Under the pieces are notes generated by a model that saw only the letters and a program-made list of their open reading frames with translations, was not told the origin of the DNA and did not search any database. The translations under genes and the position numbers were made by a program. Of a DNA stretch of 64,000 nucleotides, positions 11,664 to 63,305 are shown one piece after another (the stretch's first letter is position 1; each line of letters starts with the position of its first letter). Source of the stretch: Azolla caroliniana (lineage: Eukaryota; Plantae; Polypodiophyta); assembly GCA_043228905.1 (NCBI GenBank), contig JBHGNT010000021.1:11222001-11286000 (forward strand). The letters are read 5' to 3'.

Positions 11664-11666
11664 AGA

Positions 11667-14907: not shown

Positions 14908-14962
14908 AGAGGGCTATCAAGGCATGGGGCCGCGATAGTCCGGATACCCCGGGAAAACCCCA
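14898..14962 (+). promoter_or_regulatory. Putative -1 ribosomal frameshift signal (Y1 copy, shift site mutated to G TAT TTT)
   Basis: ORF1 stop TAG 14905-14907; -1 frame open into RT; stem GGGCTATC/GATAGTCC with loop TGGGG pairing CCCCA at 14958-14962. Confidence 0.7.
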
Positions 14963-18404: not shown

Positions 18405-18407
18405 TCT

Positions 18408-18425
18408 TGGTGAACCCGACGTGAA
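18408..18425 (+). promoter_or_regulatory. Primer binding site, tRNA-Trp (Y2)
   Basis: TGGTGAACCCGACGTGAA. Confidence 0.9.
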
Positions 18426-18447
18426 AGAGGCGGCAGAAGAGCAGAAG

Positions 18448-20574: not shown

Positions 20575-20630
20575 AGAGGGCTGCCAAGGCGTGGGGCCGA
20601 GACAGTCCGGACACTCGGGAAAGACCCCAC
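20565..20630 (+). promoter_or_regulatory. Putative -1 programmed frameshift: G GAT TTT shift site, 6-nt spacer, H-type pseudoknot
   Basis: -1 frame open from 20565 into pol; stem 1 20578-20585 / 20601-20608; stem 2 GTGGGG 20591-20596 / CCCCAC 20625-20630. Confidence 0.8.
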
Positions 20631-22930
20631 AGCTGTACGATAGAACCGAAACCGAAGAAACCTTGTACGATAGGTAGAAAATTCTGCTTCTCCAACAACG
20701 GAGGGTGTATGATAGTCGGCATCGTTGGCCGAGAAAGGGCAAGGGTTGAGGAGCGACTTCGAGCGTGCGGAGTTCTCGGCCCGGACGAGGAAATCAGCGG
20801 GGCGGTGGAGGTGGTCTCCTTCGACGACACCTTGGGGATGCTGAGGAAGGTAGCCGGAGAAGACCTGAACGAAGACCGGACGATACCGGTATGTTCCGAA
20901 GAGATGTACGAGGTCATCGCGAACTTCAGCCAGGGACTCCGGTCGGATCGGACGGCCCGAGTTAGCACGAAGTACAAGACTGTGGACCGGAAGGTAAGGC
21001 CAGTCGCGGCACCTTACCGGAGGGCAGCGAGTCCCGAATCAAAGGGGTTGCGTCGGACCCCAGTTTACGAGATACGGCCTGCATAGGACACACCTTCACC
21101 GACGGGACGCTCCGGGAGCTCAAGATCGGTGGGGGCGGGTTCCTACTGCCGGCGAAGGAAGACCGGTTTCGGAGAATGCTCGGAAGGCACGGGAAAGCCT
21201 TCACATTCTCGCTGGAAGAGATCGGGTGCGTAGACCCGACAATCGTGGAGTCGATGGTGATATTCACGGTACCGCATGTGCCGTGGAATCTCAAGCCAAT
21301 TCCGGTACCAAGAGCTCACATCCCGGAGTTGATGGAGCTACTGAGGCAGAAAGTCGATATGGGTATTCTCGAACCGTCGAGCGCGCCATACTCGAACCGA
21401 TGGTTTACTGTACCAAAGAAAAACGGAACATTGCGCTTGATTCTGGACCTGCAGCCGGTGAATAGAGTGACCATTAGGAACGCAGGAATTGGACCAACCA
21501 TAGACGAGTTCGCGGAGGCCATCGCCGGAAGGTCGATTTACACGGTCAGTGATCTGTACTCGGGGTACGACCAGTTCCAGCTAGCCGTGGAGAGTAGAGA
21601 CATTATGACGATGCGAACTCCCCTCAGCCTAGTGCGAATGTGTACCCTGCCACAAGGAGGGACCAACTCGGTGGCCCACATGGTGAATGCAATGAACAAG
21701 GTACTGAGGGATTGCATCCCGGACATCACCATGCCATTTTTGGACGACATCCCGATAAAGGGGTGCCCGGTGGAGGGGAAGGACGAGACAGTCGGGCCGG
21801 ACGGATGCCGGCGATTCGTGGCAACACACATCGACGATTGCGAGAAGGTGCTACAAAGGCTAGAGGATGCGAGGCTCACCTTCTCCGGGGAGAAATCGGC
21901 CTTCGGGCAATCAGAAATCCTGGTGGTCGAACACCTGTATGGACTGTATGGCTGGAAGCCGTCTCCGGCAAAAGTAGAAGCCATCTCCGCGATGAAGACC
22001 GACTGTAGCTCGGTTACGGAAGTTCGGAGGTTCCTGGGGGCATGCGCGTTCTACCATATATGGATCCCACATTACGCCCACGTTGCGGAGCCGCTATACG
22101 GGTTGCTAAAGAAAGGGCGAAAATTCGAGTGGCGAGACGAGCACACGGAGTCGGTCTAGAAGCTGAAGGAAGCTCTTGCGGCAGCACCGGCGCTCCGGAA
22201 GGCTGACTACGAGAAGGGTACCCCGGTATACATAACAGTGGATACCAGTCCGACCGGGATCGGATGGGTCGTCAACCAAGAAGACGAGGACGACATACGG
22301 TTCCCGATCTGATTTGGCGCGAAGGTCCTCAATGAGCGACAGCGAGGGTACGCCCAGGTTAAACGCGAACTCTGGGGTATCGTTTCGGCAATAAAGGCCG
22401 ACAAAGACTACCTAATCGGGACTGAAGTGATTATCGAGACGGATTGCCTGCCAATTCTCGGCATGGTTTCCGGATGCGCGACACCGGACCTGGCAATGCT
22501 CAGGTGGATAGCATACATCAAGTCCCTGGACCCGGAAATACGACACATTTCCGGAAAGGACAACGCCATGGCCGACATGCTTTCGAGGGCGAGGTTTGAT
22601 GACGAGGGCGGCATGGTCTCGGAGGACGAAGAAGTCGGCGTGGACTTCTTCGAGGCGGCGTACGCAACGACCGATGGGACGAGCACTCCGGCACTTAACG
22701 GCTTCGACGAGAGCAAGTACGACGGTGAGTGGCTGCGGATCGGTGGTTTCTTGAGGACAATGACGCCGGATGCATCGTGGACGAGAGACGAGGCCAACCG
22801 GATCCGGAAGAAAGCTTACCGATTCTTTCTCCGGGACGGATACTTATGGAAGCACTCGAAGAAGAGGAACGTCGTCCCGCTCAAGGTGGTGCCGAAGGTC
22901 GAAAACCGAAGAAGAACCGACGAGTGGTGA
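20565..22930 (+). pseudogene. Y2 pol (RT, RNase H; integrase lost)
   Basis: RT MPFLDDIPIKG, VRRFLGACAFY; RNase H ETDCLPIL...DNAMADMLSR; frameshift near 21015 and stops. Confidence 0.9.
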
Positions 22931-24032: not shown

Positions 24033-26450
24033 ATGCTGCTCGAAGTTTCTAGGGAGCCCCACACTTGGTTGAACAAGCACGACGTAGGCAGATACCTCAA
24101 AGTGGTAGATGCACCCCCCACCTTGACACCATCACGAACATCCAGATCCGGTCGGTGTTGGGCCTACAACGAGGCGGGGACCATGACATCGAAGATCCGC
24201 CTTAAAACGTCCTCGAAGCTTCTTTCGGGGAGTACTCAGTAACAACAAAGGTGTATCATACACAAGGCGACCCTAACAAGTTCTTTGGCAATCTCGCCTT
24301 ATTTCATTTGGAGTTCGACTACGTGCACACTAACGCGTACAACATGCGAGAGAAGAAGGCCGGAATAATCATCAACACCTACAGAGGCGGTGCACTTGAT
24401 TGGGGAATCATCACATGGGAAGGAGTTTCCACCGGCTTCGGCTATCCGGGTGGGGAAACAATTCTTGCATGCCTTAGCACAATACTTATCTATGCTTTAC
24501 CCCCCTAGTCCACTACCACACCCCGCCGAACCCTCAACCTCCTCGCCCCACCCACCCAGGCGAGACAATGAGTTTTACAATTAGCTCAGGAAGAATGGTA
24601 GGATGATACGCCTGTCCAAACTCCCCCCTACGCCCTGACCGACCACCAATACTAGCACCTTGGACCTAGAAGACCATATCACCATAAGGGTGCACAAAAA
24701 ACTGAAGTCATCTTCCTGGTGGAGAAACCAAAACTCAAATTGGCCAGCACACAACAGGACCGTCGGGAGGAGACCCAGACAACCACAAATGACAACAGTC
24801 GGCAATCCCAGGAGCAACTGAAACAGCTCCCAGAAGAGTCTGCGGTCGCGAAGAAACCCTAACCCATGAGCCTCGCCAGAAAACGCCGTAGGCTATGCCG
24901 ACCTAGCGAAGAGCAAAGAGACTCCTCGGCCGAAAACCTCCAATTGGTCATCACTTCCGAGATGACTTTCAGTGTCATCCTAGACAAAGCCATGTCCTTG
25001 ATAGAAAATACAGAGAACGAACAAGCGTCCTGTGTCTCAGAAGAAGAAATGTTGTCATTCAGGGACCTTCCAGTTGAAGCCTATGAGCTCAGTGCGATCT
25101 TACAACACGACACAACATACGAGCTAATCGACTTTATTGCTCGTCTCCAAGTTGTCACGGTAGCACGCATGGCCCAGGAACATGTTGAGGAACAGATGAT
25201 CCAACGGGCGCTCACCAACAAGCTTGAATTGGACAACGAGCAAAAGAGCACTATGAAGTGGCCAAAGCAGAAGCCGACCAAATCTAGGAGTAGGTAGCAA
25301 AACGCGAAGCCAAACTCCAAGAATGGCTTGACGCAGAGACAAGCAAGCTTCGAGAAACTAAAGAAAATGTTGCGTTGGCTCTTAGGGCAGCAAACAAGGC
25401 TTCTACAGCCAAAATACATGAAATTGAGGAAGGATACCAATGGGCTACGGCCATTAGAAACAAACAACTCATGAGTCTCCAAAACGATCACACGAAATTC
25501 CAAGAAAGGTGTAGCCAACAACTTCAAATTTTGGAAGAAGCGGTATGAGACAAATATACATTGTGGGAGTCCCTCTAGCAGTTACAAATCTCTATAGCAC
25601 AAGACCGGGAATAGGAGCAAGAGTGGTATCTGCAAAAGTTAGCCGTGAATTTGGATCAACTCCTCCGACGCTACGATCTACATACGAAGGAAATGGAGAC
25701 AAAGCTCGCCGAGATAACCGTGTCGTTCAGAATCGTGAAAGCCAAGCTCAAGCGAGACTCCGTGACTGCCAAAGACGAACTAGACACCCTACATGCCAAA
25801 TATGACATGGGCGAAGCACTAGTGGTAAAGCACTGGCTAAAGCTGAAGGAGAAGGTCGAAACGGCACTAGCTCATGGATGAAAAGAATGGCTGGCTCAAG
25901 CAGCCAAATTGCAGGTCTCCCGAAGCAGATGCCGAGAATAAGAAAAAAGAGGTTCGTGGTTTTTACAAGATGGATGAGAATAGCATTTAGATCCTCCGCA
26001 AAGATCTCACCAAGGAATTCCAAGCTTTGGCCCGAACACACACCACAACCATCGGAAACCTCCTAGAGGAATTTAATGATGATCAACTACTGCTCATGAT
26101 GGAAACCAAAGGTTATGAATGTGCGCACCTACAAGCCGAGAAGGAAGAAGAAGCCGCGGCACATGCCTTAGCAAGCAGGTTGACTAGGGAAGCAGTCGAT
26201 GAGCCGAAAGAAAAAGAGGCGACACGCCCCGGCCCGGAGATGGAACAAGTGGTTGAACAGACCACGGAGCCAAAGCAGGAGGAAGTGGCTCCGATATCCA
26301 TGGCGGTAACTCAAGATCAACAGCTCGATGTGTCGACCGAGTACCACGAAGAAGAGCCAAAACAGGAGAAGGTGACTCGAAGCTAACTGAAGCCTAGGAG
26401 AATACGGAACAAAGGGATGATTTGATGCCCGATCTCACACTGAGGGAGTT
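24033..26450 (+). pseudogene. Ancient relic of the gypsy 3' extra ORF (T0 ORF2)
   Basis: WLNKHDVGRYLKVVDAPP, YHTQGDPNKFFG...LDWGIITWEG and FYKMDENSI...NDDQL match T2 ORF2 WLTENGLGGLLRVADAPP, YRTQGGENLLF...VDWLHFITEG and FYKMDEESI...DDGQL. Confidence 0.8.
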
Positions 26451-26818
26451 GAAGCAACTGAAGACTGAGTGTACAATAGAATTTTTCAGCTCTTTTCCCA
26501 ATTTCGTGATTTTGTTTTTTTTAGGTTCGACGCGCAAGGCATTTTCCCATGGGAGTGCCAAGTGTTTTCCGTGGGACAAAGGGCACGAGGTGTGAAATGA
26601 ATCTAAAGAGACATGTAGGTCAAGCAGGGAAAAAGGGAATCGGTCGAGCACTCATAGCCAAGGAACGTAGAACAAAATACATGTAACCGAGAATAAAGGT
26701 TGTGAATTAGGAGGAAGTAGCTGAAGGACGCGAAGGAGAGAATAGGCTATATGAATCGTGGAACAACAAAATGAAAAGGAGAGTGAGTATATGCATATCT
26801 TATGAAATAAGAGAAAGA

Positions 26819-37746: not shown

Positions 37747-38027
37747 TGTTATTGTGTTACCCCGTACGAGCTGTACTGAGAGTCAAGTGTGATGAGCGAG
37801 GGTCGAATATTATCATGATGATCTTGTATATGTGTAGGGAACATAAATGTAATTGTGAGTCGATATGTATGTGAACACATGCACACGTGTGTGCATGTGG
37901 AGGGATACGATGAGGTGTGAGTGAGTGTCCAATATGAATGCTCTAGGGGGCTTACACCCCTTTGTATCTACCCCCTCTTGTACTATTTAACCCCTTTATG
38001 GGGAATGAATGATAAATGAATCATTTC

Positions 38028-38065
<38 letters not shown>

Positions 38066-38232
38066 CCTCAACGTTGAACCCCCTTGGGAGGGGGGTGGAG
38101 CCATTCTAGGCACCACCCCCCACCCCACAATGCTTCTCTATATGATCTCTCTCACCATCATACTCTCCATCACCATGTCTATCTTTATCATGATTATCAT
38201 CATCATTAACCCTAACCCTAAAACATACAACA
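37747..38232 (+). repeat. LTR of a separate gypsy family (X), followed by PBS-like TGGCAACCACGA (38238-38249)
   Basis: TG...CATACAACA termini, TATA-like CTATTTAA, CT microsatellite; no internal similarity to 44177-44566. Confidence 0.72.
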
Positions 38233-38252
38233 CATTTTGGCAACCACGACGG

Positions 38253-40784
38253 GATGGATTTAGCGGCTACAACCAAATACGAATGAACCCGGCCGACCAA
38301 GAGAAGACAGCGTTCGTGACGGAATGGGGAGTGTTCGTCGCGGTCGTGATGATGTTCGGACTAAAGACGGCTCCAGCGACCTTTCAAAGGATAATAATGG
38401 AAATTTTCGGGGAATATATCCCCGGTTTTATGCAGGTCTTCCTTGACGATTTCGCGGTCTACAGCCGGCACGGAGAGCATCTCGATCACCTCCGGCTGTG
38501 CTTGGAGAAGTGCCGCGAGTACCGATTCAGCCTGAATCCGGCCAAATGTGTCTTTGGAGTGGCAAGCGGCAACTTGCTAGGGCACGTGGTGAGTAAGGAA
38601 GGAATCGCGGTAGATCCGGATAAAGTCAAGGCGATTCTCGATGCACCAGAACCAAGTAACACAAAGGCTTTAAGTCGGTTCCTGGGCCAAATAAGGTGGC
38701 ATAGCCGGATGATACGGCACCTCGCGGACTTCGCTACACCGTTACATACCGCCGTACATAGGGTACCCTTCCTATGGGCAGAGACGGAGGAGGAATCCTA
38801 CAAAGCGTTGAAGGTTATGCTGTCGCAAGCTCCGGTGGTGCAACCGCCGGATTGGAGTAAAAGCTTTCACGTCTTCGTCGACGCGTCGAACGTAGCAATC
38901 GGCAGCGTTTTGATGCAACTCACAGAGCCGAAATGGTACTGACCGGTGTACTACGCAAGCCGGAAACTCTCAAAAGCCGAACGGAATTACTCTACGACGG
39001 AACGCGAGGCATTGGGAATGGTGTATAGTGTCACAAAGTACAGGCACTATCTGCTCGGAAGGAAGTTTTCCTTCCATGTCGACCATTCGGCACTACTCTA
39101 CCTGGTCTCGAAGGCATCCCTGACGGGAAAAATTGCACGGTGGAAACTGCTACTACAGGAATTTGAATTCGACATTTTCCACCGACCCGGGGCGCACCAT
39201 GCGATAGCGGACTATCTAAGCAGACTCGAATCCGGAGAAGTAGGGGACGACGTCCAGGATGAGTTTCCCGACGCCGAATTGTTCCGGATCACGACGAAAC
39301 CGGCAACGGATACAACGGTAGCCGACGAAGACACATGGCTAACTGAGATGCACCAGTTCCTGAGCACCGGAGTTCCCCCGGAGAACATGGACCGCGATGA
39401 AAGGAAAAGGGTAGCAGTAAGAAGTAGACATTTCTGCTTGGTTGGAGACACCCTCTATCACAAGGGGGTAGATGGCATCTGGAGACGAGAAGTGCAGAGC
39501 GATGAGAAGGATCTAATCCTTAGGGAAGCCCACTGTGGAATTGCCGGCGGGCATTATGCCGGCGACGCAACCGCTTGGAAAATATGGCAGAGCGGACTGT
39601 GGTGGCCGACCACCCTAAAAGATGCCGTGAAGTATAGCAGAGAATGCGATTTGTGTCAACGACTGGGCCAACCCACAGAGCAGGCCCGGATGCCACACCA
39701 CCCGGTCTTGCCCTTAGAACCGTTTCAAAAGTGGGGGTTGGACTTTGTCGGTCCCTTCAAACCACCGGCAATGCGAACCGGAAATCGGTATGTCATAGTG
39801 GCGACCGACTATTGCACCAAATGGGTAGAAGCAAAGGCCTTACGGGACAACACGGTCGCGTCCACGGCAAAGTTTCTGTACGAGTGCATATGGTGCCGGT
39901 ATGGATGCCCGATCGAGCTTATAAGTGACCAAGGAGGACATTTTCTCGGGCAGGTAGTAGAGAGCCTGACGTCATTTTACGCGGTGGTACATAAAAAGAG
40001 TACTCCCTACTACCCTCAAGCCAATGGACTAGCGGAATCAACGAACAAAACTTTGTAGAACATCCTACGAAAAATCGTCAACGAGAACCGGACCGACTGG
40101 GATACGAAATTGCAAAGCGCGCTATGGGCGTACCGAACAACGTACAAAACCAGCATCCGGACAACCCCGTTCCGACTAGCATTCGGGTTAGAAGCGGTCA
40201 TGCCGGTAGAGTTCCAGATCCCCAACTTACGGATTCAGGTGAAGGAGCGCTTAAGTGAGAACGAGTCCGAACGAATCTGGCTGGCAACGCTGTTGGAATT
40301 AGAGGAAAACCGAATAGCCAGCTTACTACAACTCGAACTGGAGCAAAGGAGGAGAAAAGCCTTCGTGGACCGACACCGGCGTGGCAATGAAAAGGAGTTC
40401 GAAGTCGGGAAACCGGTGCTACTATTCCAGACAAGGATGGGGAACATGCCGGGAAAGTTGCGGTTTCGATGGACCGGACCGTTCTGGATCACCAAGGAGT
40501 ACAATGGGTCGTATCAGCTCGGCACGTTGTCTGGAGATGTCATTGGCAAGTGGGCAAATGGATTTCGGCTAAAGCCGTATAAAGGAAATATGCCAGCCAA
40601 CCCGTTCAAGCGAAACTCGGAAATCAGGCAAGATGAGGAACCGACACCGACAGACGCTGCTGAAGATATTCAGACCGATGAAGAACCGACACCGATACTG
40701 ACGAAGACTATCCCGGAAAACCGACAGAAGGATCCGGTATCCACACGAACCGACCCGAACAAATCGGGGGGGACCAGCAAATGA
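38253..40784 (+). pseudogene. T1 pol (RT from DGFSGYNQI, RNase H, integrase), two premature stops
   Basis: MFGLKTAPATFQR, VFLDD, FVDAS, WGLDFVGP, YPQANGLAE; near-identical protein to T2 pol. Confidence 0.93.
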
Positions 40785-41229
40785 CGTGGTCCAAGCAAAA
40801 GGAAAAAATAAAAAATAAAAAATAAAAAATAAAAAATAAAATAAAATAAAAAATGACGTGGGCAAAATCGACGCGAATCATCGTAATGATGGGGAGATCA
40901 CAAGAGGTGGGAGCGCCACCATGCAACGAAGAGGCGCCATGCATTAAAGAAGGACGTGCGCGTACTTGCTATTTAAAGCATGGAGCGTGGGCACTCACAC
41001 GCGGCAAACAAGAAAGGACATACTAATTATGGCGGGAGAGGAACATGCGCGGGAAACGAAAAAGGGCGGCTCGAGGCACAACCCACTATATAAGACACAG
41101 GCCTGCGAAGGGCTCACTTTTTACGAATTTTCCTACATACAGGCGTAGAAGCACAGAAGAGCGACCCGACGCACAGAGCACACACAGCGCGATCCCGAAC
41201 AACAGGGAGCAGAAGAAGAATTCAAAACA

Positions 41230-44126
41230 ATGGTACTGTCGGAAGAGGCACGCCAATGGATGAGGGAGAACGGGTTAAAAGGATTGCTGCGGATCGCCGA
41301 CGCTCCACCACACGCAGAACCAGAGCAGGCGGCAGCATCGATCGATATATCAGAAGTCACGGAAGGAGCGGTGCAGGCACTCACGGGGATCAAAGCAGGA
41401 GGACTGCAAACAATCGAAAACCCTTCCAGTGAAATCCTGTTCGAATATTTCGGGGAATACTCTATCAACAGCAAGGCGTACCGAACGCAGGGCGGAGAGA
41501 ACCTGCTGTTCGGAGAAGTGGCCCGCGCTATGATGGAATACGGATTCGTGAATCCCCGTCCCCCAGCCATAGCCAAGTACCGGGCAACATTCTTAATAGC
41601 AGCGTACGAGGGCTTACAAATAGACTGGCTCCATTTCATAACCGAAGGATTGAAGGAGGCCATCAGAAATCTTGTGGAAGGAAAAAAGCCATGGGCCGGG
41701 ATAGCACAATGGCTAACGGTGTTAGTCCCACCGGTGCTCCCCATCACACAAAAGAAAAGAGGTCGGCAGGAGACGACGCCGAAAAAGGTCACAAAGCGCC
41801 GACAGATCTTGGAGAAACACACCCCCGGATGGACCCAACAAGAAGCAGAACAGCAGGGGGAAGGACCATCCCGACAGCAACAGGAACCGGCAACAAAGGC
41901 AAAACCGGCAGGTAAAGGCAAAGGGAAAGCGGCCGAGGAGGAACCGGTAGCGCGCAAACCAATCCATATAACGCTGCGACGGCCGGAACCGGAACCAGAG
42001 GTCTCTAGACAAAAGGTCTGTCTGGTAACCGCACCGGAGGAGGAAACTGAAACAGAAGACTCATCCGAACCACTGGTAAGACTCCCAGCAAGACAAGGTC
42101 GGGAGAAACGGGCGAAAGGACCAGCTCCACCAGTGGACAGAACTCAGCAGAGGGCGCAGGGACCATCTCCAGTAGCCGAGGCGGAAACAGCACCGGAACC
42201 CGTACCCAGGGAAGCAGCACCGACACCGGTTGGGTCAGAAAACCGGTCATCCCAGAGAAGAAGAAGGAACAAGCGCCGGAGCCGGAGCCAGAGAAGAGGC
42301 TGGAAAATCAGCCTGGCTTAAGTGAGCAAGGCCACCCCGACACCGGAAGAACAAAGCCACAATGGCTGAGATGGCTTTCGGAGCAGTTATCGGGAGTAGC
42401 GGACCAGTTAGAGAAAGAAGAAACGTGTCGGCAACAGCTGACGCATACAACAACTCAGGAGTTGGTCGCACTCCGAACACAGATCGAGGAAATGCAAGGG
42501 GAGCTGTTGCAGGCAAGGGAAGGAATTCAACAAGCACAAGCTGTCACCGAGCCAGTCGGGACAACAAGGAAGCAACCAGAACCGGAACCGGAACCGGTAG
42601 CCTTGCAAACCGGCCCTGAGACCGAAAAAATAATAGAAACCTTACGAGAGGAGTTACAAGCTCAGGAGGCATTAAGGGAAAGAGAAAGGGAGCAGCGGAA
42701 AGCGGTGGAGGATGACAGACGAAAAATGGAAGAAGGCCTCCGGAAAGGTCGAGCCGCTAATGACCGACTGCAAGAAGAAAAAGAGAAGTTGCAGAAGGAG
42801 AAGGACCGACTACGTCGACATGCCGAGCAAGAGATAGAACGACTGCAGGAAGAACTCCGACAACAGAAGGACCGGGACGATCGGTTAAGAGCTCAGGCAT
42901 CCCGACGCCTGAAGCAGAAGACGGAGGACTTCGACCGTCTCTACCGAGATCACAAGCAGGCCGAGTCGGACAACAAAAAACGAGCAGCAAACTACGACCG
43001 GCAAATAGAGAAGCTAAAAGAGCAGCTCAAAGAGACCCGATTAGACCTGGCTAAGGCGATGGATGAGGTCAGTGCCAACAAGGAAGCATTGTCGGCGGAA
43101 ATAGCCCAAGCAACGGAGAGAAGGAAGGAATTAGAGGCGCTAAGGCGGGAAAAGCTGGACCTGACCAAGATCAGGAATGAAGAAAAGGAAAAATCGACCT
43201 TCACGATCAGCAAACTGCAGAGTACCTATGAAAAGCAGAAAGCAGATTACGAGGCCCAGGCTCAGATAATGGCCGACATTATAAAACGGGCAAGGAAGGA
43301 AAAGCAGGAAGCTTATGCGCATGCTAAGGCAGGGGTTGACCGGATCAAGCTCATCATGTCAGGATGGAGAACCCGAGCTCAGGCAAGCATCAATGAAAGT
43401 ACGGAAAAGCTATGGAAGGAGTGGTCACAACAGGCAGCTAAGCTGCAGACACTCCGAGCGGATGTCGAGAATCGGAGGAAGACCGGTGACAAGTTCTACA
43501 AGATGGATGAGGAAAGTATCGTCGCCATTCGGGAAGAATTGTCGGAAGATTTCTACACTTTAGCGGAAGAACATCTCAAAGAAATCCGAGGGTTGGTAGA
43601 GAGGTTGGATGACGGGCAGCTCGCAACTCAGTTGGAGTTGGAGAGATACGAGTAGGACCGGTTACGACAGGAAGCTAAGGGAAGAACGACGCCAACCACT
43701 ATTGGTGAGGGAACGCGACCGGCTGAAGATGAACCAACCGACGCCGAACAACCTCGACGAGGAATACCCGAAGACGAACTTGAAGAAGAGCAGGAGCGGA
43801 CCGATGCCGGAGAAGAAGAAGAGCTGAGACCGGAAGACACCAGAGCAGAGGAAGGAGGCATATCGAGTCGACCAGTCGAGACCGGAGAAAGCGACACTGG
43901 TAACAGAACAGAGCCAAGAACGGAGGGAGAACAGGAAGAACCCGGACGAAGAGGTGAGGAAGCACCGACACCACAGAATCAAGCAGAGCCGGAGCAGCAA
44001 ATTTTTACAGAACAGCCCACCCAACCGGAGGTCGGAGACCAGGCAGGCAAGGAACAGGAACAGGAGGAAGAAGCACCACTTGACACCATCGAGCAGAGTG
44101 TGCTCGATATTTTGGAGGAAGACTGA
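41230..44126 (+). pseudogene. T1 ORF2 (3' extra ORF), one frameshift near 42250 and a stop at 43653
   Basis: ORFs 41230-42321 and 42462-43655 are collinear with T2 ORF2; both end LEED*. Confidence 0.88.
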
Positions 44127-52860: not shown

Positions 52861-53173
52861 GTTGATGGCGGTGCATGGTGTCTTAAAGATGTTTGGTCCA
52901 AAAGCCTAATAGTATTTTGTGCATAAAAGAAAAAGATGTAAGCAAGACTCGAACTTAACACCTCCAAGATAGGAAGCAATAAGTTTACCATTAAGCCAAA
53001 CCATTTCTTTAGAGATTATATTTCTATCATTATAACTTTACATATAAATTCTCATACATGAGAGCTAAAATGAGTGACGTGGTTATCATGCACCACATGT
53101 AATACATGAGCGCCAAATGGCAAACATGCATTTTATGCATATCTTGTACCCTCGAATGCATGAGGGCAACTAT

Positions 53174-53544
53174 TGTTGGCCGGTCAAAGAAGGCAAATGG
53201 GAAAGCAAGGTCGGATCGGATAAATATAGAAATAGGAATAGAATTATTAGGAGGGACGGATCCGGTAGTTGTAACCGATCCGGATCCGAACCGATTCGGT
53301 TTCGGTTAACGGTTGCCTACCGAGCACCGATTGTAATCTGGCCGGATGCCTATAAAAGGATCCGATGTTTTGTAATGAAAGCGCGAAGAATTAATATAGT
53401 TTTGCTTATGCTGATTAATCTTGTCTTCGTCTGTGCTTAAGTGTAATTATCATACGCGTGTATTAACATCCTATCCCTACCACCCCTTTGGAGAAGTGTC
53501 GGATAGACACCTGTGTTGCGGCTAGTCCAGCCATACATACAACA
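53174..53544 (+). repeat. 5' LTR of T2
   Basis: Direct repeat of 62633-63003; TATA CCTATAAAAGG ~53349. Confidence 0.97.
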
Positions 53545-53550
53545 CTATTT

Positions 53551-53560
53551 TGGCGACCAC
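53551..53560 (+). promoter_or_regulatory. Primer binding site, probably tRNA-Arg (10-nt match)
   Basis: TGGCGACCAC, complementary to ...GTGGTCGCCA of plant tRNA-Arg; 6 nt after LTR. Confidence 0.65.
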
Positions 53561-53596
53561 GATTCCTGCAGAGTGCAGAGGACAACCGGGGGATGG

Positions 53597-56500
53597 ATGT
53601 CTAGACAAAATAACGACCACATCACCGAAAGAGGGAGACGCCACGCCGAACGGCAGCGACGACGGGAAGCCCTGCAGCAAGCCGTTGACGAGATCCGGAG
53701 CGATCGGTCATTCTCAAAAACGCTTCGGCAAATCGCAGAAAACGCACTGCAGTTCCAGGTTCTACAAGCTTCCGACGAAGGCAGTAGCATAACCAGCCTC
53801 CAAGAAGCGGAGACACTACTACAGACTCTCGCTGGCGGCGACGGGGACGCAGCGGCATTTGCAACATTAGAGGCGGATTCGGATAGCGGGGAAAGCGTGG
53901 GATCCCGCTATAAAAACAGCCACGAGAACAACCCCTTTGAGTCGGATCGCTCAGCAACATCGGAACCAGAGGATGAAATAACTCTGGAGTTCGGTGACCG
54001 GCAATCGCCGAGGAGGGAGGAGCGGATACCAACACCACCCGCGGAGGAACCGCAGGAGCGGTTATCAACACCACCCGCGGAGGAACCGCAGGAGCGGATA
54101 CCAACACCACCTGCGGAGGAACCGCAGGAGCGGTTATCAACACCACCCGCGGAGGAACCGCAGGAGCGGATACCAACACCACCTGCGGAGGAACCGCAGG
54201 AGCGGAGACCGACATCGGAGGAACCAGCGCAGGAGAATCAGTGGGACGACACGATGCCGTATCCATACCCAAAGTATCGGGATGAGCCCGACGGAGAGGC
54301 ACATGTGTATGCATTCCTGCGAACATGGGAAGCCAACCACGTGTCCCAGAGACTGACGGAGCCCGAGGCCGACCGATCCAAAGTCGCCGAATTCGGCATG
54401 ACATTAGAAGGACCGGCGGCCCGGTGGCACGACAAGCACTTACCAGGCAGCTTCGCCACGTTCGAGGCATTGAAAACCCAGTTTTTACGCTTGTTTCATA
54501 GACGAGTGGAACAAAGGGAATTGGTCGGACAATTCTACACCACTCGGCAGGGAGAAAACGAGACGGTCCCACAATTTATCATTCGTTTCCAGACCTTGCA
54601 CAGTCAATTAGCAAGAGCACCACCCGAAGAGGAGGCCAAGGCAGTCTTTTTGGCTGCGTTAAAAGACCCACTTCGAGCGATGTGTGGAATCATCGATTTC
54701 AGCACCAGCACAATGGACCAAGTCATTGATCGGGTCCTGGAAATGGACAACACGAGCCCCTTCTTGCCGATGGGGGCGTTACACCAGGCGCTTCCGAAGG
54801 AGGAGGACCTCCGGTTCCGACAAGCCCTACAATGCACAACATGCCTAAATTCGGGGCACTCGACCGTTAACTGCACCCTGCGCGCACAGTGCATGATATG
54901 CAATTCTCGCGCCCACACAACGAACCAATGCGAGTATAACCTGTTAACTCGACAAGCGGCACCGGTCCGACACATAGAACCGCGCAATCGGGACCCGGAA
55001 GAGGATCGATTCCGGAGGGACGACCGCTACCGACGAGAACGCGGCGACAGATACCCCGATAGAAGACGCGACAGCTATGACCGAGAGGAGAACCGAAGGG
55101 ATAGCTACCCCCGGGACCGGTACGACCGAGACGAATCCCCGGAATACGAGCGACGCAGAGAAGAAAGGCGGCCAGGGAACCGGAATTTCCGACGGAACCA
55201 AAGGCGGGGATTCTTCCGTAGAGAAGAGCGTCGGGAGGCAACAAGGAATGACAAACCAGTAGCGGCACCGGAGAACCAAAAGACCGAGGACAACCGCCGG
55301 GGAATGCCCCTCCCCCAAACATGGGAAAAAGGAGAATCCAGCAACACGCACAGGGTGTACTGTTATTACTGCCGAAAAGAAGGGCATTACAGTAATCAAT
55401 GCCCAAGCAAAACAGCCGACAAGCAGCCAGCAGTCAACATGGTGACAGCCGAAGTACAGCAGGTTACCACGCGGTCGAAGGGGAAGGCCGCCGAATGGGA
55501 AGCCCAGGAAGTAATCAGAAAACAAGCGGCACAATGGATCAAAGAAGCCAACGAACAAGGTGCGGCGGAAGTAAGAAACCAAAATATGCCAAGGGAGGAG
55601 GAAATCGTACAGCCAGGAGAAAACCCGACATGGCAAGCACTACAAGATTGTCAGATCGTGCTGCCGTTGGCACGGTTACTGCAGTTGGTGCCGCGGTTCG
55701 CAGCAGACTTACAAGCCGCCGTAAGCAAACCGACGCCGACGCCAGCACCGGCATTTTTCTCCAACCCGGAGGAAGGCCCAGCGGTGGTTGATACCAGTAG
55801 CCCAGCAATCACGACAATCGTCAAAGGAAACGAGATTCCAGGAACAATTATTGACGGAGGTTCCGGGGTGAACGTCATTAGTCGACGGACATGCGACGAC
55901 CTAGGCATCCAGGAGTGGGAACCATGCCCCTTCTGGTTACGCATGGCGGATACAAGCTCAGTCCGACCAACTGGTCTTATCCGGGACTTGGAAGTAACAA
56001 TAGGAGGCCACGGATTCCGAATATCGGCCGTGGTACTAGAGCTGAATGTACAAGGCGCATATCCCCTACTGTTAGGACGACCATGGTTGCGAACGGCGCA
56101 TATCAAGCAAAATTGGCAAAAGAATATGATCACGTTCCGACGAGGAAAAACAAAGGTACGGGTAGCCACGCAACCACGGGTGCTCACTAGCAAGGAGGCA
56201 ACCCCTTTATATGCCGAAAGCATCAACATGTTGGAGGGCTTATTGGATGAGGAAGTTGATCGGTACCTCGAGGAACACCCACAGATCGTCCCACTTTTTG
56301 AGGTGGATATCACGGCAGCAGTAGAGCCGTACATCACAATGCCGGACGAGCCGGACAAAGTGGCGATCCGGGAACTACGCCAAGCACAGGAAGCCCTAGA
56401 AAGAGAAATGACGATATCCCAAAGGGTGAAAGCATCCCAGCTGGAAGAGGTGGACCTCGGCACAACAGAACAACCCCGACCGGTAAAAGTCGCGAAGGAA

Positions 56501-59083
56501 TTGTCGAAGGAGGAAAAACAGGCAATGGTAGCACTGTTAACGGAGTTCAAGGACGTGTTCGCATGGTCATACGAAGACATGCGAGGGTTGGACCCCCAGC
56601 TCTACCAGCACCAAATTCATCTAAGTACTGACGCGAAACCCATCGCTCAACGTCGGTACCGGATGAATCCAAACTATGCGGCAAAGGTGAAGGAGGAAAT
56701 TGACAAGCTTCTCCGGGTCGGATTTATCCGACCAGTCAAGCAGGCAACCTGGCTAAGCCCGATAGTGGTGGTCCCGAAAAAGAACGGCAAAATCCGGGTC
56801 TTCCTAGACGATTTCGCCGTCTACAGCCGACACGGAGAGCATCTCGATCACCTACGACTATGCTTAGAAAAGTGCCGCGAGTACCGATTAAGTCTGAACC
56901 CGGCTAAGTGCGTCTTTGGAGTCGCAAGCGGCAATTTGTTAGGCCACGTGGTGAGTCGAGAAGGAATCGCGGTAGATCCGGATAAGGTAAAAGCAATTCT
57001 CGACGCACCGGCACCGAATAGCGCAAAAGCTTTAAGCCGATTCCTTGGTCAAATAAGGTGGCATAGTCGGATGGTACGGCACCTTGCCGACTTTGCGACA
57101 CCATTGCACGCTGCTGTACATAGAGTACCTTTCCAATGGACAGAAACGGAGGAGGCAGCCTACCAAGCGTTGAAGGTCATGCTGTCACAAGCTCCGGTGG
57201 TGCAGCCGCCGGACTGGAGTAAAAGCTTTCACGTCTTCGTCGACGCGTCGGACGTAGCAATCGGCAGTGTTTTGATGCAACTCACGGAACCGAAATGGTA
57301 TCGGCCGGTGTACTACGCAAGCAGGAAACTCTCGAAAGCCGAACAGAACTACTCTACAACGGAACGAGAGGCATTAGGAATGGTGTACAGCGTCACAAAG
57401 TACAGGCACTATCTGCTCGGACGAAAGTTCTCCTTCCACGTTGACCACTCGGCACTACTCTACCTAGTCTCAAAGGCAGCCCTGACAGGAAAACTCGCAC
57501 GGTGGACGCTGCTATTACAGGAATTCGAATTCGACATTTTCCACCGACCCGGGGTGCAGCATGCGGTAGCAGACTACCTGAGCAGACTAGAATCCGGAGA
57601 ATCAGGGGACGGCGTACAGGATGAATTTCCCGACGCCGAGCTGTTTAAGGTCACGACGGCACCGGTAACGGAGACCACAGTAGCGGACGAAGACAAATGG
57701 TTAACCGAAATGCATCAGTTCCTGAGCACCGGAGTTCCCCCGGAAAACTTGGACCGAGACGAACGGAAGAGGATGGCAGTACGGAGCAGACATTTCTGCT
57801 TGGTAGGAGACACCCTCTATCACAAGGGGGCAGATGGCGTATGGAGGCGAGCAGTGCGGAGCGATGAAAAGGATCTGATCCTGAGGGAAGCCCACTGTGG
57901 AATTGCAGGCGGGCATTATGCCGGCGAAACAACAGCCCGGAAGATATGGCAGAGCGGACTATGGTGGCCGACTACCATGAGAGATGCCGTTAAGTATAGC
58001 AGGGAATGCGACCTGTGTCAACGACTGGGCCAACCCACGGAGCAGGCCCGGATGCCACATCACCCGGTCTTGCCATTAGAACCATTCCAAAAGTGGGGCT
58101 TGGACTTTGTTGGCCCCTTTAAGCCACCGGCAATGCGGACCGGAAATCGGTATATAATAGTGGCTACCGACTACTGCACGAAATGGGTAGAAGCAAAGGC
58201 ACTACGGGACAACACGGCGGCGTCCACGGCCAAATTTTTATATGAATGCATATGGTGTCGGTACGGATGCCCGATTGAGCTGATCAGTGACCAGGGAGGA
58301 CATTTCCTCGGGCAGGTGGTGGAAAGTTTGACATCATTCTATGCGGTAGTACACAAACGAAGCACTCCCTACTACCCTCAAGCCAACGGATTAGCGGAAT
58401 CAACGAATAAAACGCTACAGAACATCCTTAGAAAAATCGTCAATGAGAACCGGACCGACTGGGATACGAAGTTGCAGAGCGTGCTGTGGGCGTACCGAAC
58501 GGCGTACAAGACCAGCATCCGGACGACCCCGTTCCGACTGGCGTTCGGCTTGGAAGCAGTCATGCCAGTAGAATTCCAAATTCCTAGCTTAAGAATACAG
58601 GTTAAGGAGCGGTTAAGCGAGAAGGAATCCGAACGAATCCGGCTGAAGATGCTGTTAGAACTGGAAGAAAATCGAATAGCCAGCCTGCTACAGCTAGAAC
58701 TAGAGCAAAGGAGGAGGAAAGCCTTTGTAGACCGACACCGGCGCGGTAACGAAAAGGAATTCGGTGTCGGGAAACCTGTATTACTGTTCCAGACAAGGAT
58801 GGGGAGCATGCCAGGGAAATTGCGATTTCGGTGGACCGGACCATTCTGGATCACAAAGGAGTACAATGGGTCTTACCAGCTCGGGACGTTGTCAGGAGAA
58901 GTTGTGGGCAAATGGGCAAATGGTTTTCGCCTAAAACCGTATAAGGGGCACATGCCAGCTAACCCCTTCAAGCAAGACCCGGAAAACCTGAATGGCGAGG
59001 AACCGACACCGACGCGTAACAACGACGAGGAACCGACAACAGTGCGCACCGACCCGAACACATCGGGGGGAACCGAACAATGA
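53597..59083 (+). CDS. Gag-PR-(internally deleted RT)-RNase H-integrase polyprotein
   Basis: Open frame; knuckles CTTCLNSGH..C, CMICNSRAH..C, CYYCRKEGHYSNQC; protease IIDGGSG; RT reads KNGKIRV|FLDD; RNase H FVDAS; integrase HHCC and D,D,E; first ATG after PBS at 53597. Confidence 0.93.
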   Translation: MSRQNNDHITERGRRHAERQRRREALQQAVDEIRSDRSFSKTLRQIAENALQFQVLQASDEGSSITSLQEAETLLQTLAGGDGDAAAFATLEADSDSGESVGSRYKNSHENNPFESDRSATSEPEDEITLEFGDRQSPRREERIPTPPAEEPQERLSTPPAEEPQERIPTPPAEEPQERLSTPPAEEPQERIPTPPAEEPQERRPTSEEPAQENQWDDTMPYPYPKYRDEPDGEAHVYAFLRTWEANHVSQRLTEPEADRSKVAEFGMTLEGPAARWHDKHLPGSFATFEALKTQFLRLFHRRVEQRELVGQFYTTRQGENETVPQFIIRFQTLHSQLARAPPEEEAKAVFLAALKDPLRAMCGIIDFSTSTMDQVIDRVLEMDNTSPFLPMGALHQALPKEEDLRFRQALQCTTCLNSGHSTVNCTLRAQCMICNSRAHTTNQCEYNLLTRQAAPVRHIEPRNRDPEEDRFRRDDRYRRERGDRYPDRRRDSYDREENRRDSYPRDRYDRDESPEYERRREERRPGNRNFRRNQRRGFFRREERREATRNDKPVAAPENQKTEDNRRGMPLPQTWEKGESSNTHRVYCYYCRKEGHYSNQCPSKTADKQPAVNMVTAEVQQVTTRSKGKAAEWEAQEVIRKQAAQWIKEANEQGAAEVRNQNMPREEEIVQPGENPTWQALQDCQIVLPLARLLQLVPRFAADLQAAVSKPTPTPAPAFFSNPEEGPAVVDTSSPAITTIVKGNEIPGTIIDGGSGVNVISRRTCDDLGIQEWEPCPFWLRMADTSSVRPTGLIRDLEVTIGGHGFRISAVVLELNVQGAYPLLLGRPWLRTAHIKQNWQKNMITFRRGKTKVRVATQPRVLTSKEATPLYAESINMLEGLLDEEVDRYLEEHPQIVPLFEVDITAAVEPYITMPDEPDKVAIRELRQAQEALEREMTISQRVKASQLEEVDLGTTEQPRPVKVAKELSKEEKQAMVALLTEFKDVFAWSYEDMRGLDPQLYQHQIHLSTDAKPIAQRRYRMNPNYAAKVKEEIDKLLRVGFIRPVKQATWLSPIVVVPKKNGKIRVFLDDFAVYSRHGEHLDHLRLCLEKCREYRLSLNPAKCVFGVASGNLLGHVVSREGIAVDPDKVKAILDAPAPNSAKALSRFLGQIRWHSRMVRHLADFATPLHAAVHRVPFQWTETEEAAYQALKVMLSQAPVVQPPDWSKSFHVFVDASDVAIGSVLMQLTEPKWYRPVYYASRKLSKAEQNYSTTEREALGMVYSVTKYRHYLLGRKFSFHVDHSALLYLVSKAALTGKLARWTLLLQEFEFDIFHRPGVQHAVADYLSRLESGESGDGVQDEFPDAELFKVTTAPVTETTVADEDKWLTEMHQFLSTGVPPENLDRDERKRMAVRSRHFCLVGDTLYHKGADGVWRRAVRSDEKDLILREAHCGIAGGHYAGETTARKIWQSGLWWPTTMRDAVKYSRECDLCQRLGQPTEQARMPHHPVLPLEPFQKWGLDFVGPFKPPAMRTGNRYIIVATDYCTKWVEAKALRDNTAASTAKFLYECIWCRYGCPIELISDQGGHFLGQVVESLTSFYAVVHKRSTPYYPQANGLAESTNKTLQNILRKIVNENRTDWDTKLQSVLWAYRTAYKTSIRTTPFRLAFGLEAVMPVEFQIPSLRIQVKERLSEKESERIRLKMLLELEENRIASLLQLELEQRRRKAFVDRHRRGNEKEFGVGKPVLLFQTRMGSMPGKLRFRWTGPFWITKEYNGSYQLGTLSGEVVGKWANGFRLKPYKGHMPANPFKQDPENLNGEEPTPTRNNDEEPTTVRTDPNTSGGTEQ
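54020..54235 (+). repeat. 36-bp coding tandem repeat x5 plus partial copy (ER[I/L][P/S]TPPAEEPQ)
   Basis: GAGCGG(ATAC/TTAT)CAACACCACC.GCGGAGGAACCGCAG units alternating between two variants. Confidence 0.95.
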
Positions 59084-59095: not shown

Positions 59096-59565
59096 AAAAA
59101 AAAAAAATAATAATAATAATAATAATAAGAAAAATAATAAAATAAAATAAAATAAAAAAAAAAAAAAAAAAAATGATGACGTGCTACGGTCAAGAAGATC
59201 AAGAAAATCATGGTAATAATGAAGGAGGTAGTTACAACCGTCACACGGGTGCACGAGCTATTTAAAGCACAGAACGTGGGGGCGCCGTTGTACAGGATTT
59301 AAAACGCGCGTCAATTAAGGAGTCATAATGACAGACACGTAGAAGATTCGACACACGCGGCAAAGAAGCGGAAGCATGACACGCGGCAGCAAAGGACACA
59401 CATACTATTCATGACACAGCATGCGCAGGCGCCAAAAATAGGACATGCTATTCAAGGCAGAACACGTGCAGCCGTCAAAATTAAAGAGTGACATGCTAAT
59501 TATGGCAGGGGACGCGCGAAAATCAGGAAAAGGCGGCTGGAGGGAAACGCCACTATATAAAGGAA
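59096..59565 (+). promoter_or_regulatory. pol-ORF2 spacer: A/AAT tract and putative internal promoter
   Basis: Poly-A/(AAT)n 59096-59172, GCTATTTAAAGCA ~59257 and CCACTATATAA ~59551, all with counterparts in T1 (~40797-40855, ~40968, ~41083). Confidence 0.55.
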
Positions 59566-62500
59566 GAACCGGAGAAGGGTTCACTTTTTACGAATTTTCC
59601 CACAAGCAAACGCAGGCTCGACGCGCAGAACACCTACACCCCGACCTCAGACCACAGGCAGCAGCAGACGAAGAAGAAGCGATGGCACTGTCGGACGGAG
59701 CGCGACAATGGCTGACGGAGAACGGATTAGGAGGGCTGCTGCGGGTCGCTGACGCTCCACCACACAAGGAACCAGAGCAGGCGGCAACAGCGGTGGACTT
59801 AGCAGAGGTCACTGAAGGAGCGGTACAAGCGCTCACAGGGATTTCGGAGGGAGGACTTCAGACGATAGAGCTACCCTCGAGCCAAATATTCTTCGAGTAT
59901 TTCGGCGAATACTCCCTTAGTAGCAAGGCGTATCGCACACAGGGCGGAGAGAACCTGCTGTTCAGAGAGGTGGCCCGCACCCTGATGGAGTACGGGTTCG
60001 TGAACCCTCGTCCGGCAGCCATAGCCAAATACCGAGCAGCGATCGTCATCGCGACATTCGAAGGCCTCCAGGTGGACTGGCTCCATTTCATCACCGAAGG
60101 ACTGAAAGAGGCGATCAAGCACTTAGTGGAAGGGAAGAAGCCATGGGCCGGAATATCCCAATGGTTAACAGTGTTGGTCCCACCGGTGTCCCCCATCAAG
60201 CACAAGCAAAGAAGTCGGCAGGAGACTACCCCGAAGCAAACCATGAAACGCCGACGAATCCTAGAAAAACACACTCCAGGATGGACACAGGAAGAAGAAG
60301 CGCCGCCAGAAGAGGGATCATCCCGACAGCCGCGGAAAGAAGGCTCATCTCGACAACCGAGGGAAGAAGACTCCTCCCGACAGCAACGGGAAGAAGACTC
60401 CTCCCGACAGCAACAGAAACAGCAACAGCAACCGACAACGAAGAAGAAAAAGGCGGAAAAAGGCAAGGAGAAGGTGGCAAAGAAGACCAGCAAGAGGCAA
60501 ACCGACACCGAACCAGTAACGCTCGAATCGGAACCGGTACCAGTAAAGGAACCAATAGTGGCACCGACGGAGGACGCTGAAACAGAGGAAGACTCATCCG
60601 AGCCGATGTTAATACTACCACCCAGGCAAGGAAAGGAGAAACGAGCGACAAGACCGACCCCAACAGCGGACGAAACTCAGCAACGGGCAAAAGAACCGCC
60701 TCCAGTAACCGGAACAGAAGCGACACAGGATGAAGGTTCTTCTGCACCAAAGACGGCAGTACCGGAACGGACGGCGGCGGAGTTCGAAGAACAAAGAAAG
60801 GAACAAGCGCCGGAACAAGAGAAGAGGCCGGAGAAACAGCCGGAAAAACAGCCGGAGCTAGGCACGCCTGCTGACACCAACGAAGGCAGAACAAAGGCAC
60901 AATGGCTAAGGTGGTTGTCAGGGCAGTTGTCGGGAGTAGCAGACCAGATGGAGAAAGAGGAGGAGCAAAGAGAAGAAGTGACTAGGACGATGACTAAGGA
61001 TATGGTCATGCTCCGGGCACAATTACATGAGCTGCAAGAAGAGATAGCACAGGCAAAAGAAGGCAGCCGACAAGCACAAGATGGCACCGAGCCGGTCGGG
61101 ACATCAGAAAAGCAAGCCGAACCACAAACGGAGAAGGCCTTGCAAACCGGCCCTGAGACCGAGAAGTTAATAACAACTTTGAAAGAAGAATTACAGGCTC
61201 AGGAGGCATTGAGAGATAACGAAAGAGAACAGCGGAAGTTGGTAGAAGACGACAGACGGCGAATGGAGGAAGGCCTTCGCCGAAGCAAAGCCACCAATGA
61301 CCGACTACAAGAAGAAAACGGGACACTGCAAAAGGAAAAAGATAGGCTGCGCCGACGAATGGAGCAGGAAATTGAGCGGTTGCGAGAGGAACTCCGACAA
61401 CAAAAGGACCGGGATGATCAGTTGCGAGCTCAGGCGAACCGACGCCTAAAACAGAAGACGGAGGAATTCGACCGACTATGTAAGGATTATAAACAGGCCA
61501 CGTCGGACATCAAGAATCAGGCAGCAACGTACGACCGACAGATGGAGAAGCTGAAAGAGCAGCTCAAGGAAAACCGCTTGGAATTGTCCAAAGCAAGGGA
61601 GGAAGTATCGGCGGAGAAGACCTTGACGTCGGAACAAAGAAAGGAGATGGAAGTACTTCGGCAGAAAGTAGGGGAACTGACAAAGAGCCGGAACGAGGAA
61701 AAAGTGAAGTTGACTTTCGAAATCAACAAATGGCGGAGTACCTGTGACAAGCAGAAAGTCGACTCTGAAGCTCAAGCTCAGTTAATGGCCGACATCATCA
61801 AACGGATAAGGAAGGAAAAACAAGCAGCTTCGGAACAGGCTAAAGCAGGGGTTGACCGAATTAAGTTCATCATGTCAAGCTGGAGTACCCGAGCTCAGGC
61901 CAGCATAAATGAAAGCACGGAGAAACTCTGGAAGGAATGGGCACAACAGGCAGCTGAACTGCAGATACTCCGAGCTGATGCAGAAAATCGGAAGAAAAAC
62001 GGAGATGGGTTCTATAAAATGGACGAAGAAAGTATCGTCAACATCCGGGAAGAACTGTCGGAGGATTTCTATGCTCTAGCAGAAGAACATCTCAAGGAAA
62101 TCCGAGGGTTAGTAGAGAGGTTGGATGACGGACAGCTCGAAACCCAACTAGAATTGGAAGGGTACGAGAAGGACCGACTGCGACAGGAAGCCGAGGGACA
62201 CACAACGCCGATCTCCATTAGTGAGGGCGAGCGACCGGCTGAAGAGGACCCAACCAACAATGTACCCGAGGAAGAACTTCCGGAGCAAGAGCAGGTTGAT
62301 GCCGGGGATGATGCAGAGTGGAGACAGAGAAGTACCGAATCCGGGGAGGAAAGGACACAACCAGTGGAAACCGGAGAGAGCGATACCGGGAACGGAACGG
62401 AGGTGGAGCAGGACAGACCCGGACAGGATACAGAAGAAACACCGGTACCACCGGTACAAGCAGAGTCGGAGCAGCAAGATGCGAAAAGGCAGCCAATCCA

Positions 62501-62582
62501 ATCGGACGTCGGAGACGGCACAGGCAAAACAACACTTGAAACCTCGGAGCGGAGTTTGCCTGATAATTTGGAGGAAGACTGA
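59445..62582 (+). CDS. ORF2: large retrotransposon accessory protein (N-terminal globular domain, disordered linker, long coiled coil, acidic tail); function unknown; probable start ATG 59682
   Basis: 1045-codon open frame inside the LTR pair; homologues in T1 and T0; E/K/R/Q-rich heptad region; no obvious hydrophobic transmembrane stretch. Confidence 0.9.
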   Translation: MLFKAEHVQPSKLKSDMLIMAGDARKSGKGGWRETPLYKGRTGEGFTFYEFSHKQTQARRAEHLHPDLRPQAAADEEEAMALSDGARQWLTENGLGGLLRVADAPPHKEPEQAATAVDLAEVTEGAVQALTGISEGGLQTIELPSSQIFFEYFGEYSLSSKAYRTQGGENLLFREVARTLMEYGFVNPRPAAIAKYRAAIVIATFEGLQVDWLHFITEGLKEAIKHLVEGKKPWAGISQWLTVLVPPVSPIKHKQRSRQETTPKQTMKRRRILEKHTPGWTQEEEAPPEEGSSRQPRKEGSSRQPREEDSSRQQREEDSSRQQQKQQQQPTTKKKKAEKGKEKVAKKTSKRQTDTEPVTLESEPVPVKEPIVAPTEDAETEEDSSEPMLILPPRQGKEKRATRPTPTADETQQRAKEPPPVTGTEATQDEGSSAPKTAVPERTAAEFEEQRKEQAPEQEKRPEKQPEKQPELGTPADTNEGRTKAQWLRWLSGQLSGVADQMEKEEEQREEVTRTMTKDMVMLRAQLHELQEEIAQAKEGSRQAQDGTEPVGTSEKQAEPQTEKALQTGPETEKLITTLKEELQAQEALRDNEREQRKLVEDDRRRMEEGLRRSKATNDRLQEENGTLQKEKDRLRRRMEQEIERLREELRQQKDRDDQLRAQANRRLKQKTEEFDRLCKDYKQATSDIKNQAATYDRQMEKLKEQLKENRLELSKAREEVSAEKTLTSEQRKEMEVLRQKVGELTKSRNEEKVKLTFEINKWRSTCDKQKVDSEAQAQLMADIIKRIRKEKQAASEQAKAGVDRIKFIMSSWSTRAQASINESTEKLWKEWAQQAAELQILRADAENRKKNGDGFYKMDEESIVNIREELSEDFYALAEEHLKEIRGLVERLDDGQLETQLELEGYEKDRLRQEAEGHTTPISISEGERPAEEDPTNNVPEEELPEQEQVDAGDDAEWRQRSTESGEERTQPVETGESDTGNGTEVEQDRPGQDTEETPVPPVQAESEQQDAKRQPIQSDVGDGTGKTTLETSERSLPDNLEED

Positions 62583-62632
62583 AGCCGGCTGTGGGTTCGA
62601 AGTGCAATGCACTTTCCCACGGGCGTGCCATG

Positions 62633-63003
62633 TGTTGGCCGGTCAGAGAAGGCAAATGGGAAAGCAAGGTCGGATAGGATAAATATAGAAATAGGAATAG
62701 AATTATTAGGAGGGACGGATCCGGTAGTTGTAACCGATCCGGATCCGAACCGATTCGGTTTCGGTTAACGGTTGCCTACCGAGCACCGATTGTAATCTGG
62801 CCGGATGCCTATAAAAGGATCCGATGTTTTGTAATGAAAGCGCGAAGAATTAATATAGTTTTGCTTATGCTGATTAATCTTGTCTTCGTCTGTGCTTAAG
62901 TGTAATTATCATACGCGTGTATTAACATCCTATCCCTACCACCCCTTTGGAGAAGTGTCGGATAGACACCTGTGTTGCGGCTAGTCCAGCCATACATACA
63001 ACA
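62633..63003 (+). repeat. 3' LTR of T2
   Basis: Direct repeat of 53174-53544, followed by TSD ACTAT. Confidence 0.97.
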
Positions 63004-63305
63004 ACTATAAAAGAGGAGGGGAAAAAGATGAAAGGGTAATGTAAAATTTTTGGGAGCTTTGTACTTGATAGGAAAATTAAAATTAAAAGTAAGAAATTCG
63101 TTATCCAATTGATGATATATCTTGTCTCTCAAAATCTCTCTCACAATCTAAAATCAAGTGTTCTATCTTATCTCGATCTCTCCCTTTCAATATATCTTAA
63201 ATCCTTTCTCACTAAAGCTAGCGCCAACTTCGAGTGCTTCCGGTCCAGAACCTCGGCGGTTCCGCCTCATGATCCGCGCGTAGTGACAGACGAATCTTCA
63301 CGACA

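Follow-up and report, generated by a model that had tools for sequence, protein, structure and literature searches.

The window, the whole stretch of 64,000 nucleotides that was analysed, is a nest of plant LTR retrotransposons, and the host of the retrotransposon family described here is a land plant. One element, T2, has a complete outline, with two LTRs, a target duplication, a primer site, a gag-pol ORF and a second sense ORF (ORF2); homologues of ORF2 are found in two other elements, T1 and T0. We further took 68 loci from metagenome assemblies via domain alignment, and these are referred to by L numbers. The features of the window are as follows:

24033..26400, plus strand: ORF2 of T0, a heavily broken distant homologue
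40966..44126, plus strand: ORF2 of T1, a broken homologue, with its own pol upstream (38016-40784) and a 3' LTR downstream (from 44177)
53169..53173, plus strand: 5' target-site duplication ACTAT of T2, repeated at 63004-63008
53174..53544, plus strand: 5' LTR of T2, 371 bp, TG..CA, two differences from the 3' LTR
53551..53561, plus strand: primer-binding site of T2, starting TGG, 6 nt past the LTR
53597..59083, plus strand: gag-pol of T2, a single ORF of 1828 aa with gag, zinc knuckle, protease, RT, RNase H and integrase
56797..56799, plus strand: site in the RT core at which 294 nt have been deleted in frame, with 3-nt microhomology (T2 against L004)
59258..59280, plus strand: TATA-like box with a flanking ACGTG box, upstream of ORF2 and present also before T1 and T0
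59445..62582, plus (sense) strand: ORF2 of T2, 1045 aa, between integrase and 3' LTR
59673..60200, plus strand: N-terminal globular domain of ORF2, aa 77-252, with a predicted VANC/PMD-like fold
60198..60269, plus strand: basic bipartite stretch, aa 252-275, KKRGR...KRR conserved in homologues
60897..61997, plus strand: coiled-coil region, aa 485-545 and 571-851, periodicity 3.5-3.55
62010..62036, plus strand: FYKMDEESI, located where two long helices turn; beyond it lie a helix that runs to about aa 918 and a low-complexity acidic tail
62591..62630, plus strand: 40-nt element ending CCA, in place of a polypurine tract, 2 nt before the 3' LTR
62633..63003, plus strand: 3' LTR of T2

The primer-binding site of T2 is presumably of the tRNA-Arg type. 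No chromodomain was matched in its gag-pol, nor a second (archaeal) RNase H, a feature of the Tat clade, in pol; solely RT_RNaseH-type matches were found, with the integrase directly after. The full RT is present in L004, L011 and L034, and the remainder of the T2 gag-pol and ORF2 are open despite the RT deletion. Judged from its sequence, the T2 copy is RT-defective; in the contigs of three runs, neither expression nor the deletion joint was seen. A polypurine tract is absent before the 3' LTR of T2. The 40-nt element in its place, which carries a small inserted hairpin, is kept in T2, in T1 (before 44177), in the distant T0 (near 26530-26570) and in all six aligned loci (L002, L009, L014, L018, L045 and L050), and Rfam returned no family and no tRNA for it. 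The T2 gag contains an array of 36-nt tandem repeats (53982-54250) that encode an acidic proline-rich unit.

Elsewhere in the window, a gag related to that of T2 (34-36% identity) lies at 6302-7460 with no adjoining pol; it may be the gag of T0, cut off from its ORF2 by nested insertions. A young element at 7561-12184 has 516-bp LTRs that are 98.4% identical, ORFs without Pfam match and extreme CWG depletion (1 observed versus 15 expected in the LTR). Another gypsy family forms a tandem pair (12709-17743 and 18341-22930, 76% identical, both broken), one copy of which gave a weak DUF4100 match.

The initial annotation had described T2 as carrying a fully open second sense ORF after integrase, with a close homologue in T1 and a very distant one in T0, and each of these statements held. 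The 1045 codons of ORF2 are open behind a gag-pol of 1828 codons. With tblastn, T1 matched at 40966-44123 (54% and 61% identity over two frames), though its ORF2, in a correction to the earlier description, contains stops and a frameshift. T0 matched at 24068-24856 (E 2e-14) and 25925-26368 (E 3e-18), and scored iE 2e-49 with a profile built from 87 N-domain homologues; no pol belonging to T0 lies within the window, so for this copy we can only infer the env position. All four motifs quoted earlier, WL..(N/H)..G..L.V.DAPP, Y.TQG..N..F, DW...T.EG and FYKMDE.SI...L...(L/F).D.QL, are kept in T0 (24066, 24254, 24398 and 25961) and in T2 (59709, 59931, 60075 and 62010). The TATA-like box is likely an internal promoter of ORF2, to judge by its sequence and position: among 41 loci with 480 nt or more of upstream sequence, a loose version of the pattern was counted, without a chance control, in 35, and 33 share the same context.

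Homologues of the ORF2 domain amounted to 269 cluster representatives at E<=0.001 (150 listed). Word-based searches returned ENA and JGI records only, with no informative name or Pfam label, and a deep-alignment search limited to proteins of 626-2000 aa, weak as evidence, returned seven members already known and none that would link them to a named family. Upstream sequence of 700 nt or more is available for 34 loci; the family integrase lies directly upstream of ORF2 in 21 of them and not in 13. In the eight of these 13 that were inspected (L002, L003, L006, L009, L012, L013, L017 and L033), the ORF2 leader adjoins unrelated DNA at an A-rich tract, without pol, and in L003 and L033 that DNA consists of apparent host genes with introns; such loci may be pol-less copies or short-read misjoins. 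ORF2 is open in 8 of the 14 loci that span both its N- and C-terminal regions.

The N-domain gave a confident model, and its basic residues R87, K161, K195, R197 and K231 are conserved. When the predicted fold was compared with 48,161 chains, VANC21 (PDB 9LNK/9LNJ) was the single outlier, covering 94% of the domain, at an identity of 8-11% and with about 175 aa of ORF2 set against about 230 aligned in VANC21. Independently of this match, Atlas placed three plant-transposon families among its leads: ATHILA ORF-1 and Transposase_32 (0.85 and 0.84, from homologue P0061) and PMD (0.80). Pfam on T2 ORF2 returned only DUF4200 below its cut-off and EOS1, with no match to DUF1985, PF10536, PF03078, PF20167 or PF04195; on the 87 homologues it returned 29 families, the best 25 of which were each matched by one member and none better than E 0.017, with DUF1985, PF10536, PF03078 and PF20167 not among these 25. 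A sequence-profile search of the PDB yielded ribosomal-protein noise only (best E 0.036 and 0.32), and the viral fold library gave no match at E<=0.001.

Following the N-domain, the basic stretch is likely a nuclear localisation signal by its sequence; in homologue P0040, an RGRP stretch after the domain is one that we take to be AT-hook-like. Part of the coiled coil (aa 741-810) was predicted as a parallel homodimer. For the C-terminal model (pLDDT 76, pTM 0.30), the only structural matches were helical hairpins of a generic kind.

We estimated dN/dS by the Nei-Gojobori method for T2 versus T1 and 15 loci, dropping gap-adjacent and poorly aligned codons; every pair shares T2, and the comparisons are thus not independent. 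Values were 0.06-0.15 for aa 77-252 (14 of 16 comparisons estimable), 0.12-0.33 for the coiled coil, 0.05-0.19 for aa 781-915 and 0.25-0.71 for the tail. The whole of ORF2 gave 0.13-0.28, versus 0.01-0.06 for RT-RH-INT. In this comparison with pol, which the initial annotation had proposed, dN/dS is far below 1 for ORF2 as a whole, where a value near 1 would have spoken against selection. Its reading of ORF2 as a selected, element-encoded soluble factor and not a membrane Env is supported by these values, by the lack of a transmembrane segment (highest 19-residue hydropathy 1.31) and by the open frames among the spanning loci. Its description of diverging linkers had to be revised for the C-terminal half, which instead contains a long coiled coil under selection.

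CHG methylation should leave a footprint in coding DNA by converting CAG codons to CAA, for which GAG/AAG versus GAA/AAA served as a control. The CAG/CAA odds ratio was 1.29 in T2 and 0.93 in T1 pol, and below 1 in all nine neighbouring copia and gypsy segments (pooled 0.38, p 7e-8; ORFs of the element at 7561-12184 were excluded from pooled codon tests as their frame is unverified). An unrelated gypsy within L035 gave 0.06. The footprint separates T2 from the others with z 4.9, a comparison of one lineage with about six, and the direct CAG share differed only at p 0.04. Family segments from the loci had odds ratios below 1 in 5 of 15 cases, significantly so in one, and an independent third-position test gave 0.93 versus 0.59 (difference p 0.15). 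The T2 LTR itself is CWG-poor. CpG tests did not distinguish the families, and substitution spectra (T2 versus L001; T1 versus its closest loci), in which replication and post-insertion changes are mixed, contained little or no CG/CHG excess.

The T2 LTR contains 10 ATCCG/CGGAT and 7 CGGATC/GATCCG motifs, counts reached in 0 of 300 dinucleotide shuffles; they are clustered and do not form a tandem array. The T1 LTR is similarly enriched, and of two other LTRs tested, one was not enriched and the other was enriched less strongly (P 0.01-0.03). Elsewhere in T2, CGGATC occurs four times in gag-pol and not at all in ORF2 or the spacer. This CGGATC/ATCCG cluster is a candidate binding array.

Taken together, we tentatively favour, at a little short of an even chance, a reading in which a non-chromovirus Ty3/gypsy family carries ORF2 as a conserved accessory gene. 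The product of ORF2 would be a DNA-binding protein of the VANC/PMD fold group, nuclear and dimeric, that protects the family to which it belongs from repressive non-CG methylation. Transcription would run from the internal promoter through to the 3' LTR, and the basic stretch would direct nuclear import. The predicted coiled-coil dimer would pair the N-domains, which could then bind clustered short LTR motifs, CGGATC being the candidate, and CHG methylation would be lost across the element body. The product would act in trans, so that an RT-defective copy such as T2 could still serve the family. This mechanism is modelled on VANC, in which non-CG methylation of the body drops and non-coding regions remain RdDM targets (PMC10398659, PMC5735166). 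The earlier guess of anti-silencing gains support from the predicted-fold match to VANC21 and from the codon footprint.

The same DNA-binding fold could serve another job, that of a plain transcriptional activator or of a chromatin tether that steers integration (e.g., via BET/GTE proteins) and leaves methylation unaffected; we regard this as possible but decidedly less probable than an even chance. The NLS-like stretch and the dimer prediction fit it as well, and it draws on a linker motif, P-[ILV]-[KRH]-[IVL]-[TKR]-[ILVF], present in T1 and in 14 of 35 homologues longer than 300 aa, a pattern drawn post hoc and without a chance control. The motif includes exact PLKIKL and PLKIRL, the cores of the CHD4 and MLV integrase ET-binding peptides (PMC10849530). 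PLKIKL/PLKIRL-like forms occur in the T1 linker (about 41950-41985) and in P0006-P0009, P0040 and P0042-P0045, but are lost in T2 and its subfamily, and an activator or tether would leave the CWG footprint unexplained. That the VANC match arose by chance, and that ORF2 encodes a soluble protein of new fold with a structural or movement role (a particle scaffold or a cytoskeletal or plasmodesmal adaptor), is unlikely: the single outlier in the fold comparison is itself a plant transposon accessory protein, Atlas independently arrived at plant-transposon families, and both the basic residues and the NLS-like stretch have been conserved.

A membrane Env-like fusion protein is highly improbable, as the hydropathy maximum revealed no retroviral-type Env transmembrane anchor in ORF2. 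Still more remote is a non-functional frame held open by A/G-rich composition; although there is a strong purine skew over ORF2 and the linker is repetitive, this is refuted by the selection test, and the 269 representatives and the confident fold also speak against it.

The anti-silencing reading bears on several questions in the field. What extra ORFs do in plant Ty3/gypsy elements is described as a question that has long been open (PMC7264820, PMC6317226), their effect on the methylation of their own element was stated in 2026 to be uninvestigated for Athila and Tork (PMC12844716), and the origin of PMD, retrotransposon or host gene, has been called "fully open" (PMC5418596). The T2 family allows such ideas to be put to the test, as it combines a compact domain that was modelled with confidence, a candidate motif within LTRs of 371 bp and a methylation phenotype that can be predicted. 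If ORF2 is indeed an LTR-binding anti-silencing factor, it would give retrotransposons their first demonstrated system of this kind. Our literature search, mostly short of full-text depth, found no report of anti-silencing by a retrotransposon extra ORF, nor of the ORF2 family. A bolder proposal, which we consider possible but clearly less likely than not, is that LTR retrotransposons of seed-free plants carry a sequence-specific anti-silencing factor, a compact VANC/PMD-fold dimer on an LTR CGGATC cluster that leaves the element body CHG-free; that the VANC/PMD/ATHILA-ORF1 fold was present on retroelements long before angiosperms; and that host MAIN/MAIL and VANC descended from a retrotransposon gene.

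The suggestion of an undescribed system was overstated, as extra ORFs with PMD plus coiled coil have already been described in Tat elements, namely lineages IV and V (PMC4408406). By sequence, ORF2 is not a member of VANC, PMD, Transposase_32 or ATHILA ORF-1; on its predicted fold, the N-domain most likely belongs to the group they form (VANC being DUF1985), and the fold and layout make it likely that ORF2 works as these proteins do. Structural homology between VANC and MAIN/PMD has been published (PMC13547354; bioRxiv 2024.09.27.615353), and MAIN/MAIL are PMD proteins (PMC5418596, PMC6317226). Athila, Ogre and Retand commonly carry extra ORFs, whose named domains are PMD, Transposase_28 and Athila ORF-1 (PMC6317226).

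VANC21, one of the VANC proteins of the Mutator-like VANDAL elements (PMC5735166, PMC10398659), serves an Arabidopsis transposon to remove silencing marks from its own DNA. Like ORF2, VANC is a transposon accessory gene, combines a conserved domain with repeat-rich variable regions and a predicted coiled-coil dimer, and goes with a coding body without CHG mutation footprint; the two may also be alike in the fold predicted over the whole N-domain and in clustered short motifs in non-coding DNA. VANC, reported to be dicot-specific (PMC13547354), belongs to a DNA transposon, its motifs form tandem arrays and it is DUF1985, whereas ORF2 belongs to an LTR retrotransposon whose host plant is likely seed-free, its family's motifs lie in a short LTR and it has no DUF1985 match. 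The Retand antisense TRP28 ORFs and Grande gene23 (PF04195; PMC11963269, PMC7264820) are likewise conserved accessory ORFs between pol and 3' LTR, with their own promoter and nuclear, predicted DNA-binding products, but are antisense and described as confined to flowering plants, while ORF2 is sense and without PF04195 match.

The PMD and PMD-coiled-coil ORFs of Tat/Ogre (PF10536; PMC4408406, PMC5418596, PMC6317226) share with ORF2 a globular domain followed by a coiled coil, as an extra ORF of a non-chromovirus gypsy. They are 5' sense or 3' antisense, in contrast to the 3' sense ORF2, and Tat/Ogre elements have the archaeal RNase H that was not matched in T2, as PF10536 was not in ORF2. PMC4408406 reports that extra ORFs are missing from moss Tat-like elements and from those of lineages I/II, and the T2 family would carry the fold group into a host that is likely seed-free. 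The Athila sense 3' extra ORF, ATHILA ORF-1 (PF03078)/Transposase_32 (PF20167) (PMC11728184, PMC7264820), agrees with ORF2 in position, orientation, lack of an aRH or chromodomain match and a predicted NLS; these two families are the best Atlas leads, and coiled-coil oligomers are predicted for the Athila domain (PMC13547354). Unlike Athila, ORF2 has no match to these Pfam profiles and no transmembrane helix and is about 1050 aa long, and T2 has short LTRs and no polypurine tract. ORF2 is a real accessory gene under selection, a distant variant of the accessory proteins of PMD/VANC type, and the signs that it may act against silencing are indirect.
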